Below the pieces are notes generated by a model. It was not told the DNA's origin. It worked only from the letters and a program-made list of their open reading frames with translations, and did not search any database. The position numbers were made by a program, and so were the translations under genes. Shown here piece by piece: positions 53,843 to 64,000 of a stretch of 64,000 nt of DNA; position 1 is the first letter of the stretch; the number at the start of each line of letters is the position of its first letter. Source of the stretch: an uncultured Poribacteria bacterium (GTDB taxonomy: Bacteria; Poribacteria; WGA-4E; WGA-3G); assembly GCA_958296135.2 (NCBI GenBank), contig CATQHZ020000001.1, positions 2,720,001 through 2,784,000 on the forward strand. The letters are read 5' to 3'.

Positions 53843-55804
53843 TCAACGGTAAAACGAATAAACCGAAACACCCCAAATCAGCCGGACCAGCACCCAAGCA
53901 CCCCCGACGATAAATTGCCCGAGAATCAGCCCCAAAAAGAGCGGTAACACCCGATGATACAGACGGATGCCGCCAAATCGTAAGATGATGCTCTTAATCG
54001 CCCAACTTATCAGCACGGAAAACCAAAGCCAGCCAAACGTCCAGATACTGCTCGCAACGGCATAGCCGGTGGGATGAAAGGGGAACATCGGGAAACGGGT
54101 GCGCAGCCACCACAGCAAACCGGTGAACAGAAAGCCTGCACCCATGAAAATAACCGCAGGGATGTTCGTTTCGGTTGGGTAATAGAGCCATGAGCGGAGC
54201 ATGTTGTAACCGCCGCTACCCAAACCCGGATTCGCGCCGATGTTATAGGAGACAACCAGATACGCCCAGAACGAGGCAAGGATACCAAAAAAGATGGCGC
54301 ACATCATCGCCACTACCATGCGCCCAGCGCGCATGTTCGCTACCTCAACGAGTTTGAATCCCTCCAGCGTATGGGGCATCGGATGCGCGCGATACCCACG
54401 ATTAAAGGCGAAATAGAGCGACATCATCGTCAGACTCGGCGGCGGAATCGGACGCGAACCGAGCGCGTCGATGATGAACTGCCGCGGATTTGCGACAAAC
54501 ATCTCGTGTGTCGGTGGGCCGACTTCAGCGCGCACGCGCGTAATGCCTAACGCAAGCAGGTAATAGATGGCGAAATAGAGGGCTATCATCCAGACTGCCA
54601 TGCCGCCTTGATTCGAGAAAATGAAGAGAAAAAGCACACCACCGATTAACCCTGCCACCGGCCAGCGGTAATCGGTTGAATCTTGCATTTCTTCAGAAGA
54701 ACCGGTAGACGCGCGCCGGAAGCGCGCAAAAGAACCTATCAGGCCTTTGAAAACGGCATAAAAGTGCTTACGCCCGCCGTAAAGCCCAAAACAAGCGATG
54801 GCGAGATACGCGCCGACTCCCTGAGGGCCGTCATAAGGGAACCCCGGCAAAACTTGTAGGCCCATCGCCCTGCCGAGGATGCGCTCGCCTTTCCAGAAAA
54901 GGTAAAAAAACCACAGAGAAAACGACATCTCCAGCGGCATCAAGAACGCAAGCCCCACCCCGAATGAGAGGATATAGACGGGTGTCCACCCCATCGCATC
55001 CCACGGCTTTTCGGTGAAATAGATGCCCAAGTCTGCTTTACGCACCGGGATTTCGGGAAACGTCGGAAAGAAGGCGTGGATACCGTTAATCAGATCGATG
55101 CTTCCCGCAATCGCGAACCCCAGCCACAACATTTTGTTTTTGAAGAGCCGCCCATCCGAGTGTGTCATCTCTACTGGCAAGCGGACAATCGGATACGTCA
55201 ACCGCTCCCGTTCAATCCACTGCTTGCGGAGAAGTAAATCGATGCAAATCATCACCCACATCAGCACGGACAGAAAGACAGTCCACCATAAAATCGGTTC
55301 CCACCACGCGGAGAGATACCTTCCCGTGTAAAAGGTGGTATCGCCATCGTAAAAATCTTGCAAAACGGAGAGTTCGCTGAGCGTCATCCAATTCGGTAGG
55401 TATCGCCAGAAGAGTTGCTGCCATTCGTTTTCAGGCGTGGCAAACCAGAAGCCGTTCGGGATAACGGGAACGACGGTTTGCATCATGTCATGCCCCGCGA
55501 TAGCTGAGGAGATGGACAAGATGACATAGATTGTGAGCAGCTCACCCTGCCGGAGGGCAAACCGCGGCAGCAGCCATTTGAACAGGAAATTGAGGCATGT
55601 CAACACCGTCAGCGTCACTACCACGTTGTAAATCAGCGACATCGTGGTGGGCAAAGTGCTCCAGTAACGGAGGTGGTTTGCCATGATAAAATAGGTGTTC
55701 GGCAGAATCAGGAGAACCCCAAGCAGAATCGCGCGAAAGGTGACACCGGGATGCCTATTTTGAGAGTGTGGATGTTGCACGTGGAGTTCTGTGTTGTTTT
55801 GCAT
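53843..55804 (-). CDS. Large multi-pass membrane protein (DUF6785/DUF6784-like, putative transporter)
   Basis: ELLTIY, RKQW...ERLTYP, PFHPTGY, LFLGLILG. Confidence 0.75.
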   Translation of the reverse strand: MQNNTELHVQHPHSQNRHPGVTFRAILLGVLLILPNTYFIMANHLRYWSTLPTTMSLIYNVVVTLTVLTCLNFLFKWLLPRFALRQGELLTIYVILSISSAIAGHDMMQTVVPVIPNGFWFATPENEWQQLFWRYLPNWMTLSELSVLQDFYDGDTTFYTGRYLSAWWEPILWWTVFLSVLMWVMICIDLLLRKQWIERERLTYPIVRLPVEMTHSDGRLFKNKMLWLGFAIAGSIDLINGIHAFFPTFPEIPVRKADLGIYFTEKPWDAMGWTPVYILSFGVGLAFLMPLEMSFSLWFFYLFWKGERILGRAMGLQVLPGFPYDGPQGVGAYLAIACFGLYGGRKHFYAVFKGLIGSFARFRRASTGSSEEMQDSTDYRWPVAGLIGGVLFLFIFSNQGGMAVWMIALYFAIYYLLALGITRVRAEVGPPTHEMFVANPRQFIIDALGSRPIPPPSLTMMSLYFAFNRGYRAHPMPHTLEGFKLVEVANMRAGRMVVAMMCAIFFGILASFWAYLVVSYNIGANPGLGSGGYNMLRSWLYYPTETNIPAVIFMGAGFLFTGLLWWLRTRFPMFPFHPTGYAVASSIWTFGWLWFSVLISWAIKSIILRFGGIRLYHRVLPLFLGLILGQFIVGGAWVLVRLIWGVSVYSFYR

Positions 55805-57212: not shown

Positions 57213-57687
57213 AAGACTGCCAGACCGGGTTTCACACTTCCAGCAGCGGCTGCACTATGAAGATGAGAACATCATCGTCACATCGCAACGAGTTAAGCCA
57301 TCCTCGCCTATTGTACATAACGGTGAAACGGTGCTGGGAGAGAACTTCACCGCTGTCTGGTTCGTGTTTACGGGGCAGTGGTACGACATCGGGAAAATCT
57401 ACAACCTCAATAACGAGTGGACCGGCTATTATTGCGATATTATTGTGCCGGTGATACGGACAAAAAGCCGTTTTGAAATAACCGACCTGTTCTTGGATCT
57501 CTGGGTATATCCCGATGGCAGTTATGAGATTCAGGATGAGGACGAGTTTGAGGCGGCAATTCAGGCCGGCGCGATTGACACCGACTTGGCCCGAAAAGCG
57601 CGCAAGGCACTTAACGCCTTAATCGCGGAAGTTGAATCAGGAGAATTCCCGCCGCAAATCGTGAGAACCGAAAACGGAATTGTGTGA
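57187..57687 (+). CDS. DUF402 family protein
   Basis: GYYCDI, DLFLDL.V, DEDEF. Confidence 0.85.
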   Translation: METVTLKYKRLPDRVSHFQQRLHYEDENIIVTSQRVKPSSPIVHNGETVLGENFTAVWFVFTGQWYDIGKIYNLNNEWTGYYCDIIVPVIRTKSRFEITDLFLDLWVYPDGSYEIQDEDEFEAAIQAGAIDTDLARKARKALNALIAEVESGEFPPQIVRTENGIV

Positions 57688-57689
57688 AA

Positions 57690-58008
57690 CGCGTGTCAAT
57701 CTATTTGCAATTCTGGGTACCTGTTGCTTGAGCCGTCTCGTTGATGAACTCACACAAAACCGGATTCTTCGGGAAGCCGAAGGGGTAAGCAACTTGAAGA
57801 ACTCGGGTTCAAACATGAGGACGCGTTGCACATCGCATGTGCCGAAAGCGGCAACGCGGCCATCTTATTGACAACCGATGACAAGTTCCTCAGCAGGGCG
57901 CAACACCATGCTGATAAACTTCGCGTCCGAGTTGAAAACCCTTATACATGGTTACAGGAGAACCCTGGCAATGAACATCTTCAAGATGACCGAGCTGGAA
58001 ATTTATGA
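57690..58008 (+). pseudogene. Degenerate PIN/VapC toxin
   Basis: LGTCCLSRLVDELTQNRILREAE in one frame; DALHIACAE...LLTTDDKF...ENP in another. Confidence 0.7.
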
Positions 58009-58435
58009 AGTCGGCATCGAAATTCTGAGGGAGAAACTTGGCCCTGCCATCGATCGGTTTCTCCCACAGTGCAAACCGGGCAAAGGCAACTGGTCCGTTG
58101 ACCGGCACAAATGGATAAATAAAGAGCGGGATGTAGAGACACTCGCTCGACGCATCCAACAAGAGCGCGAGAAGAGGCGCGCGCAGGAACAAGAAGAGGC
58201 ACGTTTGAGACAGCACTGCGCTGCCGCAAGTCACGCCGAAATCCTAAAAATGACAGATTTGGAAATTTACAAAACTGGCATTGAAGTGCTTGGTGAAAGA
58301 CTTGGCCCTGCCGGGATGTCCCGGTTTCATAGGTACTGCGCACAGCGCAACGGCACAAAAGACGAGCGACGCAGCGAGACGGCCGCCAGTTATAAACCAC
58401 AGCCGCCCTTGCAGGAAACGCATCCTTCCCAATAG
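57971..58435 (+). CDS. Putative antitoxin with an internally duplicated domain
   Basis: MT(E/D)LEIY..GIE.L...LGPA...RF occurs twice. Confidence 0.65.
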   Translation: MNIFKMTELEIYEVGIEILREKLGPAIDRFLPQCKPGKGNWSVDRHKWINKERDVETLARRIQQEREKRRAQEQEEARLRQHCAAASHAEILKMTDLEIYKTGIEVLGERLGPAGMSRFHRYCAQRNGTKDERRSETAASYKPQPPLQETHPSQ

Positions 58436-58543: not shown

Positions 58544-58573
58544 TTGATATTTATTTACAATTAATGGTATAAT
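58544..58573 (+). promoter_or_regulatory. sigma70-type promoter for the terminal operon
   Basis: TTGATA-N18-TATAAT with TG extension, in an AT-rich gap. Confidence 0.6.
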
Positions 58574-58632: not shown

Positions 58633-60024
58633 TTGAGCGGAGGCAGAGTTACGAAGAACCTCTTTTTTCCAATCGGCGGCGGAAATGAAATCGGCGCGAG
58701 CTGCTACTTTATCCAGTTAAACGGTGCAAAACTCCTCTTGGATTCGGGCATTCGGTTGCATTCCGATTCTACTTTTCCGCGCTTCGATTCGCTTTATGCA
58801 CAAAACTACCTCGATGGCTTGTGGGAGCTGGAGGGAATACTGCTCTCTCACGGACACCTAGACCATGTCGGTTCACTTCCGAATGTCGTCACCGAAGCAC
58901 CGGATGTGCCCATCTACGCGACTCAGGCGACACATGACATTATGGAGATGCAACTGAGCCAAGCCGTAGATGGGGACTCTGTCCCGGATGCAACTTGGCA
59001 GGACTTTCGAGAAGTGCAGCAGTTCAACGCGACCCGGGTGGAACGCGCATTAGAAAACGTTCGGTTCGTTGAATGGGATGAACCTTTTCTCCTAGAGTAC
59101 CAGGGAAGCGTGCGATATCCTCCCGTGCAAGTCACGTTCTATCCTGCCGGGCACATCCTCGGTGCTAGCATGATTTACGTCCAATCCGACGCGGGAAACA
59201 TTTTGTTTAGCGGCGACTTTACGCCGTTCGACCAGATGACTGTCCCAAAGTATCAGATTCCGGACAATTTGGACGTGGATTTACTCATTGCTGAATCGAC
59301 ATACGGGTATCAGGAGGGAACTTACGCGGGAAATGTCGGTGAAGAACGCGAAATCTTCGCGCAAAAAATCGAGCGATGCTTGAACAATAAAGGCAGTGTG
59401 CTCATTCCTGCATTTGCAATCGGAAGGAGCCAGGAACTTGCCCTGATTTTGCAGAACCTCATCCACTCCAAACGGTTGATGCCGTTCACGATTTACATTG
59501 ACGGGCTCGCACAAACGGCTTGTGAGATTTATCAAAATAACGGCGTACGCGTCTTCGGATATCAGGTAGGTAAAGCACCCCGCGGGCTTATCGAAAACCT
59601 TGACATCTTTAACGGCGTGCTCATCGCTAGTTCTGGGATGTTACTCGATAAGAGTGCCTCAGCACGCTACGCTGAAAAACTGCTACCCGACTCAAGGAAC
59701 GCTATTTTCTTTAGCGGCTACCTTGATGAAGAGAGCCCAGGGCGACGGCTAGAACGATTGTATCGGAGCAAAGGCGAACAGTTTCGACTCAATGACAGAA
59801 GTGTGCCTGTCCACGCAAATGTTGATACATACCGGCTCTCTGCACACACCGACAGCGAGGGGATTCTCTCGCTCATTGAAAAAGTTTATCCTAAGAAAGT
59901 CGTTTTCGTTCACGGGTACCCGCAACAGCGGACCGTGGTTAACGTCTATAGTGAAACCTTCCGGCGGTTCGGAAGAGATATAGAGGTCTATCAAGCCACC
60001 AACGGCACGCCTATCTATTTCTAA
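58633..60024 (+). CDS. Metallo-beta-lactamase/beta-CASP nuclease (CPSF73/Ysh1-like)
   Basis: EIGASC, LLDSG, SHGHLDH, AGHILG, SGD, ESTYG, PAFAIGRSQE, SSGML, SAH, VHG. Confidence 0.9.
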   Translation: MSGGRVTKNLFFPIGGGNEIGASCYFIQLNGAKLLLDSGIRLHSDSTFPRFDSLYAQNYLDGLWELEGILLSHGHLDHVGSLPNVVTEAPDVPIYATQATHDIMEMQLSQAVDGDSVPDATWQDFREVQQFNATRVERALENVRFVEWDEPFLLEYQGSVRYPPVQVTFYPAGHILGASMIYVQSDAGNILFSGDFTPFDQMTVPKYQIPDNLDVDLLIAESTYGYQEGTYAGNVGEEREIFAQKIERCLNNKGSVLIPAFAIGRSQELALILQNLIHSKRLMPFTIYIDGLAQTACEIYQNNGVRVFGYQVGKAPRGLIENLDIFNGVLIASSGMLLDKSASARYAEKLLPDSRNAIFFSGYLDEESPGRRLERLYRSKGEQFRLNDRSVPVHANVDTYRLSAHTDSEGILSLIEKVYPKKVVFVHGYPQQRTVVNVYSETFRRFGRDIEVYQATNGTPIYF

Positions 60025-60215
60025 CGAACCATCGGAATAAAAAATCGGGTATGAGGCATCCGGCCTCAAACCATTGATAGCATCGGTAAGGATGCAAAAC
60101 TTTGCATCGAGAACGTAGTCATCGACAACGGCGATGACAGCCCTGGTAAAATCACGTCATTGCACCAGGAACCTCAAACGCGTTCCGAAATACGAAAGAG
60201 ACAGAGGTACCATAC

Positions 60216-61451
60216 GTGGAATTGAAAATCAGCGAGCTGATAAGTAAATACCGGCATAAAGGCAGAAGTCAAGAGAAACACCTCGTTGAACGGCAGCTGA
60301 ACGCTTATCACTTGGCGCGCGCCGTCTTGCATGCACCCGAAAGCCGACCGATCGAACTCGTCACACAACTCAAAAAGGACATGGGCGTGAGTCGTCTCCC
60401 CTTTCGCGTTGTCGACGAATTAGACCGGTATCGCCTCGGGCCCAGAAAACGCGTCACCTGGGCAGAACAGATTACCGAAATCGGGCAATGCCTCTGCGAA
60501 TTCGCAACCGGCGACCCGGCAGACTGCGACCATCAGGCGTTGTATGAGCAGGCGAAACGCTACCTCGCCGCCCCATCGATAGAGGAATACACGCACCTCG
60601 CACCGCACGACGCACGGCCGATAGAACCGAAGGCGATTCTCTACGCTTTTTATGCCGAACTGCCAGAGACAGTGAGCTACAAAGCCATCCTTCACGATAC
60701 CGCTCGGCTGGCGAATTTTAAGCAGACGAAAACCCTCTTGGATGAACTCGTTGAACTCATCGCGCGAGAGAGAGGGCTCCGTCCCAAGAAGTCTGCACAC
60801 GAACGCGCCCTCGGCGGCATCGCCGAAACGCGGGGGCTCCTTGAATCTTTGACGCACCGAAGCACCGCGCCCATCACTTCTTCTCCGATGCCTGAGGACG
60901 ACATCCCCTTTGAGCTCATTGAGGATGAGAATGTCATGGCGGAAGAAGAGGCACTCCACGAAAACGCAGACCTGCGCGCCTCCGCGGAAATCGCGCGGCA
61001 GGAACTTGAAGTTGTCAAAGAAGAACTTGAGCAAGTCAGGGAAGAAGCGGGGCAGGAAGCCGCCCTCGCCTTCTTCCAAGAGATGAATTCCGGGAAACAC
61101 AGCAACTTGCTGGACCAGTTTCTCAAGGCGGAAGAGCTCGTCAAGGGTTTAAAGAAAAATGGGATAGAGATTCCGCAGGAAATTGAACTCATCCCCATTA
61201 TCATCCGCATGTTTAACCGCTTCCTCAAAACCCAAGGCATCCGCCCCCAAGCAGTTGTCGGGGAAAAGAAGGAGATTACCCTCAACGAATCTGATGAATA
61301 CGAATACATCGGTTCGGAATGGAAAGATCCGGAGGAAACGAAGACAGTGGAAGTCATCTCCGCCGGATGGCTCTACAAAGGCACGCTCACAGGCGATGAG
61401 AGTGAGCCTATCGTCATTAACAAACCGAAAGTTCAGGAGGTAACCTCATGA
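60216..61451 (+). CDS. Protein with an unknown N-terminal domain and a GrpE-like C-terminal region
   Basis: Coiled coil, LLDQF helix, then GIRP...VGE...VEVISAGW.Y.....I.KPKV; ATGA overlap with the Hsp70 gene. Confidence 0.6.
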   Translation: MELKISELISKYRHKGRSQEKHLVERQLNAYHLARAVLHAPESRPIELVTQLKKDMGVSRLPFRVVDELDRYRLGPRKRVTWAEQITEIGQCLCEFATGDPADCDHQALYEQAKRYLAAPSIEEYTHLAPHDARPIEPKAILYAFYAELPETVSYKAILHDTARLANFKQTKTLLDELVELIARERGLRPKKSAHERALGGIAETRGLLESLTHRSTAPITSSPMPEDDIPFELIEDENVMAEEEALHENADLRASAEIARQELEVVKEELEQVREEAGQEAALAFFQEMNSGKHSNLLDQFLKAEELVKGLKKNGIEIPQEIELIPIIIRMFNRFLKTQGIRPQAVVGEKKEITLNESDEYEYIGSEWKDPEETKTVEVISAGWLYKGTLTGDESEPIVINKPKVQEVTS

Positions 61452-64000
61452 AATATTGGGTCATCGCGCCAATGGAATCCACCATCCCTGAAGAATTGTT
61501 CCAGAACGCTTGGCAACACGACAAACAACATGGAACAATCGCCGTAGGCTGGCCCGTCCATACGCAGCACGGAACACCCATCTCGCCTGCAGGAGTCCCT
61601 CCTGCAGTCCGAGGGCAGGTGTCCCCTACCGACCAGCTGGCGACTCTATCTGGGTACGGAACCTTTGAAGATTTCCAAGACTACTTCAAGAATTTTAACC
61701 AAGAATGTCAACTTGACTGGGGCCCCCGGGCAGCAAAAATCGTGTGGGAATTCCATCGCGAAATTCAGATAGGGGACAAGGTCATCGCACGGCTCGGGTT
61801 AAGCAAGATTCTGGGCATCGGCACCGTTACCAAAACCGCCTACTACGATTGGCCGCAAGCGATAACTCGCCTGGGAACCTCCACCCCCATTCCCGAGGTG
61901 GACTATTCCCACGTTCGGCCGCGGTTCATCGAAGTCAACTGGGAACACACCGGAGAATTTCCAGCCAAATTGGCATGGAGACGCAGTGTTCAGGAAATCA
62001 CCAGCCAGCAATTTCACGAGGTGCTGGCTGGGTTGAACCTCGAAGCAGTTCCTATAGATTCAGAGCCCCCGAGCCGAACTGAAGCACCGGACCTCGCATC
62101 CCAAGCCTATCCGGAATCCACGCCGGAGACGGTTCAGCCGCACCCGCCTGTAACAGAGGAAGCAGAGCCAACACGAAGGGCTTCGGCACCCATTGAACAT
62201 GAAACCGGCAGAGATGGGAGTCAGCCGCAATCGGCACCTCAGCGGAGCACAACAGAGCCAGAGGATACGACAACGTCAAGGATGCAGTCACCTCCCTTTG
62301 GCCGTTCAACAGGGCTGAAGGCGATTCTACCGCACGAGGTGGACAGACAGCACAAACCTTCCGTTCGTGCCGCAATCCCTGCGCCGGATGCTCCAACCGA
62401 ACCCGCGCACCCGAACTATTACATCGGCATCGATTTAGGCACGACGAACTCTGTCATGGGATGGGGCACGCTCAATCCACAGACGAACAAGTTAGAACCC
62501 AAAGTCGTGGAAATTAACATGATGATTGAGCGGGGCGGTATGGGGAAAAAGGAGTTGTTACCGTCGTGCGTCTATTTCAAAGAAGGAAGCCCACCGATTA
62601 TCGGGGAATACGCGAAGACGATGATAGGACGGCAGACAAGCCGGGTAGTGAAATCTGTTAAGAGCGACATAGGTACACCGAAGCAGTATGAGTTCGATAA
62701 CACCACTTATAGCGCAGCGGAAATCTCATCGCAGATTCTCAAGCACCTCGTCGCCAGTGCAAAGACCTTGTTCGGATTCATGCCCGATGATGTCGTCATC
62801 ACCGTGCCTGCCTCCTTTGATTCGGATATGCGGGCAGCCACGATTGAAGCCGCGCGCCTCGCCGGATTCCGCACACACGAAGACGATGGAAGTCCACGGA
62901 ACATTTTGCTCGATGAACCGCGCGCCGCACTCTACGATTTCATCAATAGACAGGACAAAGGGGAAATCCCTGAAACGCTCATCAACTTCCACACGCCGAA
63001 ACTAGTCCTCGTCTTTGACCTAGGCGGCGGCACCTTAGATGTCTCTTTACACAGAGTCTCTTATGAGGACCACGAATTCCGTCTGAACATCGAAGATTTG
63101 GCCGTCTCGCGGTATACGCAAATCGGTGGAGATGATTTCGACCAGAAACTTGCCGACCATTTCTTCGCAGCCTACGCGAATAGGCTCCCCAATAACCTTA
63201 ATGATTTCCAGATGAATCTGATTAAGAGTGACTTCCTGGAATTCGCAGAACAAGCCAAGATTGATCTGAGCAGCGAGATTGAAACGAGCAAATTAATGCG
63301 GTATTTTGACCCGGATACAGTTGAAACGACGATTATCCAAACGCCGTGGGAAAATCTCGTGTTTCAATACGATTTGACGCTAACCGAATATGAAGACATC
63401 ATTGAGCCGCTCCTCGCGAATCAACTCACGCTGGAATCGGTCGCGCAACTTGACACACTGCCCGCCTGTGATAACATCATCTACCCTATCCTTGATGTGT
63501 TACGAAAAGGGGAACGCAAACTCGGGACGATGCCGCAGGTCGATGCCGTGCTCCTCAACGGCGGCATGACGAAACTCCACACTATCCAAAAACGGTTGGA
63601 GACGTTCTTCGGTTTCCCACCGATTACTGCTGGCGATGCCGACAAAGCTGTCGCACGCGGCGCAGTGGTGTATCACTACGACTTGCACAGAGGGATTAAA
63701 CCGGCACGCATCCTCAACGATACTATCGGCATTGAAATCGCTGGTGGTAGAGTCAAACCGCTTGTGGAAGCAGGAACGATTCTGCCGTTGTCGGCACCGC
63801 AATCGATTGAGGGACTGCAGGTAAGCGACGGCGCGCCCTCCTTGCGGCTGCCGTTTTACCTCGGCAGCCGCAAGGATACCAAACCACCGAATCGACGCAT
63901 CCTTGAACGGAACGTGCGATTTAGGCGGCCGCTCCTCAAAAATGAACCCATCTACATACAAGTGCAGGTGGACGAGCGCGGCATTATGAACGTCGAAGGG
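61448..64000 (+). CDS. McrB-N/EVE-like domain + Pro-rich linker + divergent Hsp70 (runs off the window)
   Basis: Manual translation is open for 851 codons: MKYWVIAP...AVGW...WEFHREIQIGDKVIA...GIGTV...VNW; from 62417 IGIDLGTTNS, VITVPASF, DEPRAA, FDLGGGTLDVS, GGDDFD, LNGGMTK, AVARGA. Confidence 0.88.
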   Translation, partial: MKYWVIAPMESTIPEELFQNAWQHDKQHGTIAVGWPVHTQHGTPISPAGVPPAVRGQVSPTDQLATLSGYGTFEDFQDYFKNFNQECQLDWGPRAAKIVWEFHREIQIGDKVIARLGLSKILGIGTVTKTAYYDWPQAITRLGTSTPIPEVDYSHVRPRFIEVNWEHTGEFPAKLAWRRSVQEITSQQFHEVLAGLNLEAVPIDSEPPSRTEAPDLASQAYPESTPETVQPHPPVTEEAEPTRRASAPIEHETGRDGSQPQSAPQRSTTEPEDTTTSRMQSPPFGRSTGLKAILPHEVDRQHKPSVRAAIPAPDAPTEPAHPNYYIGIDLGTTNSVMGWGTLNPQTNKLEPKVVEINMMIERGGMGKKELLPSCVYFKEGSPPIIGEYAKTMIGRQTSRVVKSVKSDIGTPKQYEFDNTTYSAAEISSQILKHLVASAKTLFGFMPDDVVITVPASFDSDMRAATIEAARLAGFRTHEDDGSPRNILLDEPRAALYDFINRQDKGEIPETLINFHTPKLVLVFDLGGGTLDVSLHRVSYEDHEFRLNIEDLAVSRYTQIGGDDFDQKLADHFFAAYANRLPNNLNDFQMNLIKSDFLEFAEQAKIDLSSEIETSKLMRYFDPDTVETTIIQTPWENLVFQYDLTLTEYEDIIEPLLANQLTLESVAQLDTLPACDNIIYPILDVLRKGERKLGTMPQVDAVLLNGGMTKLHTIQKRLETFFGFPPITAGDADKAVARGAVVYHYDLHRGIKPARILNDTIGIEIAGGRVKPLVEAGTILPLSAPQSIEGLQVSDGAPSLRLPFYLGSRKDTKPPNRRILERNVRFRRPLLKNEPIYIQVQVDERGIMNVEG

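Follow-up and report, generated by a model that had tools for sequence, protein, structure and literature searches.

The DNA analysed here is a 64-kb window of contig CATQHZ020000001.1 (positions 2,720,001-2,784,000) from an uncultured Poribacteria bacterium, of a sponge-associated type, and its subject is a cassette of three genes that begins near the end of the window; 20 kb of genome sequence around the cassette was also taken. All three genes lie on the + strand and occupy about 6.5 kb in the order nuclease, GrpE-like protein, Hsp70. Gene 1 (58633..60024, +) encodes a predicted beta-CASP metallo-beta-lactamase (MBL) nuclease of 463 amino acids (aa) in which Pfam recognises an RMMBL (RNA-type) C-terminal motif. 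Gene 2 (60216-61451, +) encodes a GrpE-like protein of 411 aa, and gene 3, which starts at 61448, a protein of 1244 aa whose stop codon falls at window-equivalent position 65183 of the genome sequence, 1.2 kb beyond the window. Genes 2 and 3 share 4 nucleotides (nt; ATGA). A predicted sigma-70-like promoter (TTGATA-18-TATAAT with a TG element; 58544-58573, +) lies 60 nt upstream of gene 1; it is a consensus match only (11/12), and was the top-scoring site in an 8.3-kb scan (L002 1600-9900). A first-pass annotation of this DNA had described three co-oriented genes behind a promoter with ATGA coupling of the last two, and the coordinates of the open reading frames (ORFs) and the near-consensus site agree with that description.

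Gene 1 scores above the Pfam cut-offs for Lactamase_B (48.8 bits), Beta-Casp (46.9 bits) and RMMBL (33.7 bits), and it is the only gene of this genome with a Beta-Casp match. When 13 family members representing three lineages are aligned, residues D37, H73, H75, D77, H78, H174, D195, H405 and H427 prove invariant (13/13), and E221 is kept in 12 of the 13. We take these residues, including the HxHxDH motif at 73-78, to be MBL motifs 1-4 plus beta-CASP motifs A-C. This conservation, together with the Pfam scores, upholds the earlier claim of a full set of MBL/beta-CASP motifs, and gene 1 is, as judged from its sequence, a beta-CASP metallo-beta-lactamase nuclease with intact catalytic motifs. 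The best NCBIfam models, aCPSF1 (187 bits, cut-off 580) and Cas14 (166 bits, cut-off 800), are both matched far below the equivalog level; the RNase J models give 52 bits against cut-offs of 400 or 820, and the model for the ligase-associated DNA-damage-response exonuclease is matched in part, with 73 bits against a cut-off of 325.

Gene 2 itself has no match in NCBIfam or PADLOC, nor in Pfam with the threshold relaxed to E 10, and its profile yields 0 matches at E<=10 among the sequences of the PDB. An AlphaFold2 model based on 22 homologues (mean predicted local distance difference test score, pLDDT, 73) contains a confident helical domain (residues 1-190), a disordered linker, a long helix of 55 residues (236-290), two shorter helices (298-314 and 325-339) and a small beta domain with strands between 342 and 408. 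In an unbiased structure search against 48,161 PDB chains the top three matches of this model are GrpE (Z 7.9-8.0). Alignment of the Foldseek candidates with VIA-align likewise places six GrpE entries at the top, at Z 7.4-8.3 with 139-150 residues aligned (model residues 230-411), and the next entry at 4.7. Although moderate in absolute size, these Z values cover the whole GrpE chain and are well separated from the rest. Foldseek alone finds nothing in the PDB at E<=0.001, and the GrpE entries appear there at E 0.2-0.4 only.

The relatives of gene 2 provide a second line of evidence. A hidden Markov model (HMM) of the family, searched against 1.84 billion representatives, retrieves 328 clusters (50% identity) at E<=0.001 and 267 at E<=1e-10; the family thus comprises at least 328 clusters at 50% identity, mostly unnamed. 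When 40 distant members were scanned with Pfam, GrpE (PF01025) was matched in 17 at E<=0.01 and in 7 at or above 25.8 bits, with matches that span profile positions ~6-161 of 165, and one family member carries the source name GrpE. Since the fold and this transitive sequence evidence agree, we assign the C-terminal half of gene 2 (residues ~231-411, comprising the long helix, the helical bundle and the beta domain; 60906..61451, +) to GrpE; according to the model it has the GrpE fold, in line with the GrpE-like character that the first-pass annotation had proposed. A profile search of a 5.8-billion-protein set returned almost only Poribacteria among the matches listed, which is no measure of taxonomic breadth.

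The N-terminal part of gene 2 (residues 1-190; 60216..60785, +) is modelled as an all-helical domain with pLDDT mostly between 82 and 94. According to the HMM search it is conserved across much of the family, and profile positions 1-378 are covered in many distant members. The sole lead to its fold, the C-terminal region of yeast Stn1 (Z 6.1), is weak and was not trusted. Inspection by eye revealed no HPD motif in this domain, which is no proof of its absence. A complex prediction for the nuclease with the N-terminal domain scored 0.00 without controls and says nothing for or against binding.

Gene 3 matches Pfam HSP70 (PF00012) with 149 bits against a cut-off of 20.6, over residues 326-850. 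Because this match begins at residue 326, the N-terminal extension of ~320 aa that had been noticed at first pass is real, and the description of the protein as a divergent Hsp70 also stands, its scores being far below the equivalog cut-offs for DnaK and its relatives: 144 bits against 648 (PRK00290), 141 against 822 (TIGR02350) and 127 against 620 (HscA) in NCBIfam. The ATPase domain and the substrate-binding beta domain start at 62423 and continue to 64000, where the feature is open at the window end (+). In an alignment with the two DnaK proteins of the genome, all 14 family members keep DLGTTNS, the K70-equivalent, the E171-equivalent, DLGGGT and GGMT[KR], which we take, after DnaK, to be the phosphate-1 motif, the K70 and E171 equivalents, the phosphate-2 motif and the adenosine motif. 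By its motifs, gene 3 is an ATPase-competent Hsp70. Elsewhere in the genome there are a canonical GrpE gene and two DnaK genes, so that the gene 2/gene 3 pair is an extra set. We also observed another atypical Hsp70 (G000:C1:3543085-3546522; L041 496-3282, -), a 927-aa protein whose N-terminal region is Ig-like and whose ATPase domain begins at residue 356, an architecture unlike that of gene 3.

The C-terminus of gene 3 consists of a Pro-rich linker followed by HEAT repeats (HEAT_2, 28.3 bits against a 27.7 cut-off, residues ~1048-1116). HEAT_2 is above the cut-off in G113 (31.2 bits) and L034 (28.8 bits) as well, and tblastn alignments of gene 3 reach residue 1242 in three lineages. This domain lies beyond the window from which the first-pass annotation was made, and with it gene 3 resembles the named protein CnuD.

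At the other end of gene 3, residues 1-205 (61448..62062, +) match Pfam EVE at E 0.0073 with 16.7 bits, below the 23-bit gathering score, and the Atlas lead is DUF8426 (score 0.95). The model of this domain comes from a shallow alignment (pLDDT 65). Its structural matches are PH1033, an EVE protein (Z 11.7, 116 residues aligned), YTH domains (Z 9.4-10.5) and VcaM4I (Z 10.4), followed by DrmAB (Z 8.2), the McrB N-domain with m5C DNA (Z 8.0) and THYN1 (Z 7.7); in total, 14 of the 48,161 chains reach Z>=8. The model thus assigns residues 1-205 an EVE/YTH fold and makes them a predicted modified-base reader, so that the 'sensor' placed here at first pass is probably a PUA-like reader such as type IV restriction systems contain. 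A Pro/Thr/Glu-rich linker that matches no Pfam family (residues 206-325; 62063..62422, +) joins it to the ATPase domain. Outside the cassette, a 294-aa protein from a Lokiarchaeota record (P0267), with precomputed Pfam assignments to DUF8426 and DUF1016, has an N-terminus 48% identical to 35% of the gene 3 reader; the reader module is therefore joined to another protein family elsewhere. Another sequence, P0146, is a 1295-aa singleton in which the N-terminal domain of gene 2 is joined to a reader-Hsp70-HEAT protein without the GrpE half. We regard it as a variant produced by deletion or as an artefact of assembly and did not use it as evidence; it indicates that reader-bearing versions occur outside this genus, with 31% identity in the N-terminal domain.

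To describe the conservation of the cassette we use 16 loci: nine from Poribacteria (the present one included), three from Clostridia and four from metagenome contigs that represent a third branch of the family. The Clostridia and third-branch loci were found with a single fused protein (see below) and a sub-family alignment as queries. The locus in G122 (L012), where the contig ends and only the C-terminal part of gene 2 is present, stands outside this count. All three genes are present in 16/16 loci, in the order nuclease, GrpE-like protein, Hsp70-HEAT, and each of the eight further Poribacteria loci keeps the order nuclease, gene 2, Hsp70. A 4-nt overlap equal to that between genes 2 and 3 is given by the ORF coordinates in 10 loci, which we take as a sign of translational coupling. 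The Hsp70 proteins that lack the reader are 883-950 aa long and begin at the ATPase domain.

In two of the Clostridia loci, those of Acetatifactor sp. and an Oscillospiraceae genome, a single protein of 771-783 aa combines the nuclease with the GrpE-like protein, and in both the fused gene overlaps the start of an Hsp70-like gene of 883-888 aa; the third Clostridia locus, in G179, has three separate genes in unchanged order. Linkage of the three genes, which the first-pass annotation had read from this one locus, thus extends to other genomes and other phyla. Among the four metagenome loci of the third sub-family, three have the same order, and in the remaining one (L037) the nuclease is 7.7 kb off. 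There the copy of gene 2 is without its N-terminal domain and five unrelated genes on the opposite strand, encoding a P-type ATPase, a histidine kinase, a response regulator, a ClC channel and a PEP-utilising enzyme, stand between it and the nuclease (L037 2365-10600); this cassette appears to have been broken by insertion or rearrangement. In G113 (L018 6397-9104) the Hsp70-HEAT protein is split into two overlapping ORFs of 390 and 513 aa, which we take to reflect either a decaying copy or a sequencing frameshift.

The cassette is rare, and its distribution is patchy. With gene 2 as the query, 10 of 151 sampled genomes of the phylum were positive, distributed by genus as 2/2 (g1, own genome included), 6/57 (g3), 1/38 (g2) and 1/1 (g5), and a sample of 300 Clostridia genomes gave 2 positives, the centre genome counted, with one further genome unscored. 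Six of eight Poribacteria loci have the cassette between a DUF402 gene and a DegT gene, and these two genes are adjacent, forming an empty site, in 5/5 genomes without gene 2 from three genera; in the two other loci, G095 and G067, it lies elsewhere. In the present genome the DegT-type aminotransferase gene is the next one downstream, starting 500 bp after gene 3. On the upstream side, the frameshifted C-terminal remnant of a PIN-domain toxin gene (57748..58008, +) and a 185-aa ORF, possibly antitoxin-derived (57878..58435, +), both neighbours outside the module, stand between the DUF402 gene and the cassette (window 57665-58435). The first-pass annotation had called these neighbours decayed toxin-antitoxin genes. 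This is borne out in part only: the PIN match (57748-58005) is below threshold (E 0.0017, 19.4 bits against a 23.6-bit cut-off, profile positions 87-115 of 120), and no Pfam family matches the adjoining ORF. This ORF contains an internal duplication: two diverged copies of a ~25-residue motif, encoded in a 72-nt direct repeat with 74% identity and a spacing of 264 nt. In G113, IS4/5- and DDE_3-type transposase genes separate DUF402 from the nuclease, and in G069 a gene for an RRXRR protein follows the cassette; because of these insertions as well, the intergenic site seems to gather mobile debris. No repeats bracketing the cassette were found at the present locus, and an Rfam scan at E<=0.1 gave a single match at chance level, to a mammalian long non-coding RNA model (22.8 bits against 40).

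Neighbouring genes were read with Pfam and PADLOC, and flanking ORFs were scanned with Pfam in 12 loci. The cassette of G179 is accompanied by a resolvase, a primase-like protein, MazF, an HTH protein and the S and M subunits plus an R fragment of a type I restriction-modification system, that of Acetatifactor by PP2C and a kinase-NACHT-WD40 protein, that of L034 by an N-terminal fragment of HmaC and an NB-ARC-TPR STAND protein, and that of L036 by FHA, PP2C and AbiEi. G095 has a NERD+UvrD candidate (225 bits), two ParB-like proteins and RmuC, and G067 an IS605 TnpB. In the present genome a D12-class N6-adenine DNA methyltransferase (L002 13402-14235, -) lies 4.2 kb downstream of the cassette and 5.4 kb beyond the window end; it matches the PADLOC model MTase_II with 379 bits and also the orphan-MTase model, and no restriction enzyme was recognised adjoining it. 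Such neighbours are suggestive of a conflict setting and do not amount to an enrichment test.

Two further observations concern the surroundings of the present locus. Two paralogous membrane proteins of ~640 aa flank the region (window 53843-55804, -, and L002 14273-16174, -, the latter 10 kb beyond the window end); the downstream copy is DUF6785+DUF6784, and similar ORFs of 630-650 aa recur near the cassette in other Poribacteria loci. At L002 12063-13152 (+), overlapping ORFs of 259 and 214 aa in different frames carry 'TSGGSI/TSGGNL' repeats, as would one frameshifted repeat protein or an assembly error.

Our best explanation, which we hold with about even confidence on the sequence evidence, is that the cassette encodes a self-contained three-protein conflict or defence module in which the Hsp70 cycle would gate or target the nuclease. 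An anti-phage or conflict role, and a chaperone switch that controls the nuclease, had been proposed at first pass; we infer both from the patchy distribution, the empty site, the neighbours and the domain logic, and we likewise infer the binding among the parts, the order of events and the target. In the mechanism that we propose, the ATPase-competent Hsp70 with its HEAT domain, here supplemented by the EVE/YTH reader, would serve as an NTP-driven sensor and switch, and gene 2 would be its private nucleotide-exchange factor of the GrpE type. The additional N-terminal helical domain of gene 2 would tie this factor physically to the nuclease, with which it forms a single polypeptide in some Clostridia. 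GrpE recognises Hsp70 in its ADP-bound or empty state and resets it. For this reason the nuclease might meet the Hsp70 only after hydrolysis: only when the Hsp70 had engaged a target and hydrolysed ATP would the nuclease be handed over to it or set free by it. The RNA-type beta-CASP enzyme would cut the nucleic acid to which the reader/HEAT part is bound, and the system would then be reset by nucleotide exchange. The target is more likely RNA than DNA, given the RMMBL motif and the YTH-like matches; the EVE matches to readers of 5mC DNA keep DNA as a possible target.

Several observations weigh against a defence role for such a module or against parts of the proposed mechanism. Within Poribacteria the identities of the cassette track those of its flanks; the record fits old vertical inheritance with many losses and occasional relocation, not rapid turnover. 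The usual Poribacteria site, between a homocysteine methyltransferase/DUF402 pair and the DegT aminotransferase, is one among metabolic genes, and L027 and L037 likewise have otherwise ordinary neighbourhoods. Searches by tblastn gave no plasmid match with gene 2 and the central family member as queries, and no phage match with gene 2. A J-domain partner was not seen in any of the flanks scanned with Pfam. The core proteins of this locus gave in PADLOC-DB v2.0.0 only two weak, local matches, PDC-S02 (E 2.3e-4, in the reader domain) and PDC-M61B (E 8.1e-4, in the DLGGGT region), and five family members from four lineages had no match in PADLOC-DB v2 at 1e-5. Finally, the 'sensor' that the first-pass annotation had placed on the Hsp70 does correspond to an EVE/YTH-fold domain, but it is present in three of the 16 loci (the present one, G080 and G061) and missing from 13, which makes the reader an accessory rather than part of the core.

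The metabolic setting and the vertical pattern of descent would also suit an accessory RNA-surveillance or RNA-processing machine that has nothing to do with immunity, in which the beta-CASP RNase, of the CPSF/RNase J type, would degrade or process cellular RNA or ribonucleoprotein (RNP), the Hsp70-HEAT protein and its exchange factor would remodel the RNP and the YTH-like domain would read methylated cellular RNA. Its appeal lies in the RMMBL 'RNA specificity' motif, in aCPSF1 and Cas14 as the best families of the nuclease, in YTH-fold matches to m6A RNA readers, in the many Poribacteria copies that sit at one conserved site and diverge in step with their flanks, and in the ability of Hsp70 to bind RNA and ribosomes, which is mentioned in the available excerpts of a paper on CoCoNuT systems (Bell et al., eLife 2024, PMC11090510). 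A cassette found in 10/151 genomes of its phylum and in 2/300 Clostridia, with clean empty sites, is unlike a housekeeping machine, and conflict-type neighbours occur at several unrelated loci; we consider an RNA machine unlikely.

Another reading is a chaperone-addicted toxin, after the manner of toxin-antitoxin-chaperone (TAC) systems, in which the Hsp70/GrpE-like pair would hold a latent nuclease inactive or foldable until something titrates the chaperone, such as a surge of phage protein, and thereby frees or kills the nuclease. The chaperones are a private set in tight linkage to the nuclease and fused with it, the Hsp70 keeps its substrate-binding beta domain (the Pfam match extends to profile position 482-547), toxin-antitoxin remnants or MazF lie beside two loci, and TAC systems with SecB-like chaperones have been reported to be anti-phage, according to the excerpts available. 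We nonetheless find it distinctly doubtful, since the cassette lacks a conserved small antitoxin-like partner and the reader and HEAT repeats point to target recognition rather than folding alone; moreover it overlaps our best explanation, from which it differs only in the direction of control. The partial match of the nuclease to the ligase-associated DNA-damage-response exonuclease, the capacity of EVE domains to read modified DNA (as in the THYN1, VcaM4I and McrB N-domain matches) and the RmuC, UvrD-like and glycosylase genes near some loci would fit an accessory of DNA repair or recombination, with the beta-CASP enzyme acting on DNA ends or crosslinks (SNM1/Artemis-type) and the chaperone loading or unloading it. 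This we hold to be very improbable: the RMMBL motif speaks for a beta-CASP enzyme of the RNA type, none of the flanks scanned showed a ligase, Lhr or Ku-type partner, and the distribution is patchy.

Returning to the conflict or defence module, Hsp70 and GrpE are textbook housekeeping partners, and here a complete private Hsp70/GrpE pair is hard-wired, and in places even fused, to a nuclease, in a cassette conserved from Poribacteria to Clostridia. We advance tentatively, as possible rather than probable, the idea of an undescribed class of immune system in which an Hsp70 ATPase and a GrpE-type factor would take the place of McrB GTPases or STAND NTPases: target recognition by the HEAT or EVE/YTH part would drive the ATPase, the RNase would be delivered after hydrolysis and chaperone kinetics would set the immune threshold. 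If the cassette does serve defence or conflict, it would be the first such system to place a nuclease under the control of the nucleotide cycle of an Hsp70, exchange factor included, and it would join two scattered predictions, the Hsp70-HEAT protein CnuD of CoCoNuT systems and the HSP70 plus GrpE of GTPase systems. With three genes and clear point mutants for each part, the system is small and can be tested in the laboratory.

How does the cassette compare with systems already described? The first-pass annotation knew of no named system of this composition, and we found none either, in PADLOC-DB v2 or in the full-text literature, where no description of a beta-CASP + GrpE + Hsp70 system came up; the supplements of related papers, which that search did not cover, could hold related neighbourhoods. 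The housekeeping DnaK-GrpE-DnaJ system has in common with the cassette an Hsp70 fold with all ATPase motifs and a GrpE fold. It differs in that gene 3 reaches 144 of the 648 bits required for DnaK, with the lid replaced by the Pro-rich linker and HEAT repeats, in that the GrpE-like protein has an extra domain of 190 aa and in that neither DnaJ nor HrcA is present at the cassette. Cas14, of type VII CRISPR-Cas, and archaeal aCPSF1 are the top named families for gene 1 and share its catalytic motifs; gene 1, however, scores far below their cut-offs and is without KH domains, and no CRISPR array or Cas genes lie near the cassette. With type IV restriction (McrBC, and the EVE-HNH enzyme VcaM4I) the cassette shares the logic of a PUA-like/EVE reader combined with an NTPase and a nuclease, and the N-terminal domain of gene 3 matches in fold. 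In contrast to those systems the NTPase is an Hsp70 and not an AAA+ GTPase, the nuclease is beta-CASP and not PD-(D/E)xK or HNH, and most loci do without the reader.

The nearest parallels come from predicted conflict systems that contain Hsp70-like proteins. According to the available excerpts of the CoCoNuT paper (PMC11090510), CnuD of the Type III CoCoNuTs, which are McrBC-like, consists of the Hsp70 nucleotide- and substrate-binding domains plus HEAT repeats, in systems that also have YTH-like domains and HEPN RNases; its Walker A-like motifs are degenerate, and these excerpts make no mention of nucleotide exchange, DnaJ or beta-CASP. In CnuD/CnuCD, as in gene 3, HEAT-like repeats thus follow an Hsp70-like unit for ATP hydrolysis and substrate binding, within a predicted nucleic-acid-targeting conflict system, and YTH-like readers and a suspected RNA target are common to both. 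The differences are that the 12 flank-scanned loci contain no NxD McrB-like GTPase (CnuB), DUF2357 McrC-like (CnuC) or HEPN gene, that the nuclease is beta-CASP where CoCoNuTs have HEPN, that there is a GrpE-like factor, which those excerpts do not mention, and that the ATPase motifs are intact where those of CnuD are described as degenerate; the likeness to CnuD is one of described architecture.

Pairs of Hsp70 and GrpE in predicted conflict systems are already in print: in the available excerpts of Kaur et al. (eLife 2020, PMC7159879), conflict systems centred on a GAP1-N2 GTPase include HSP70 and GrpE, together with a protein in which FNIII repeats are fused to DnaJ or TPR. As described there, they resemble the cassette in that a predicted conflict system encodes an additional HSP70 and a GrpE to go with it, with an NTPase thought to set the threshold, and they are without a beta-CASP nuclease and without HEAT repeats on the Hsp70, both of which are present here; conversely, no GTPase, FNIII or DnaJ protein occurs in the flanks that we scanned. 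The accessible parts of two preprints add that HSP70-like NTPases can replace STAND NTPases as switches (2026) and that there are DnaK-like fusions to EACC1-protease modules (2025). Since no McrB, DUF2357, GTPase, FNIII, DnaJ or HEPN gene is found in the scanned flanks, the cassette is not a member of the CoCoNuT or GAP1-N2 systems; it does share parts and logic with both.

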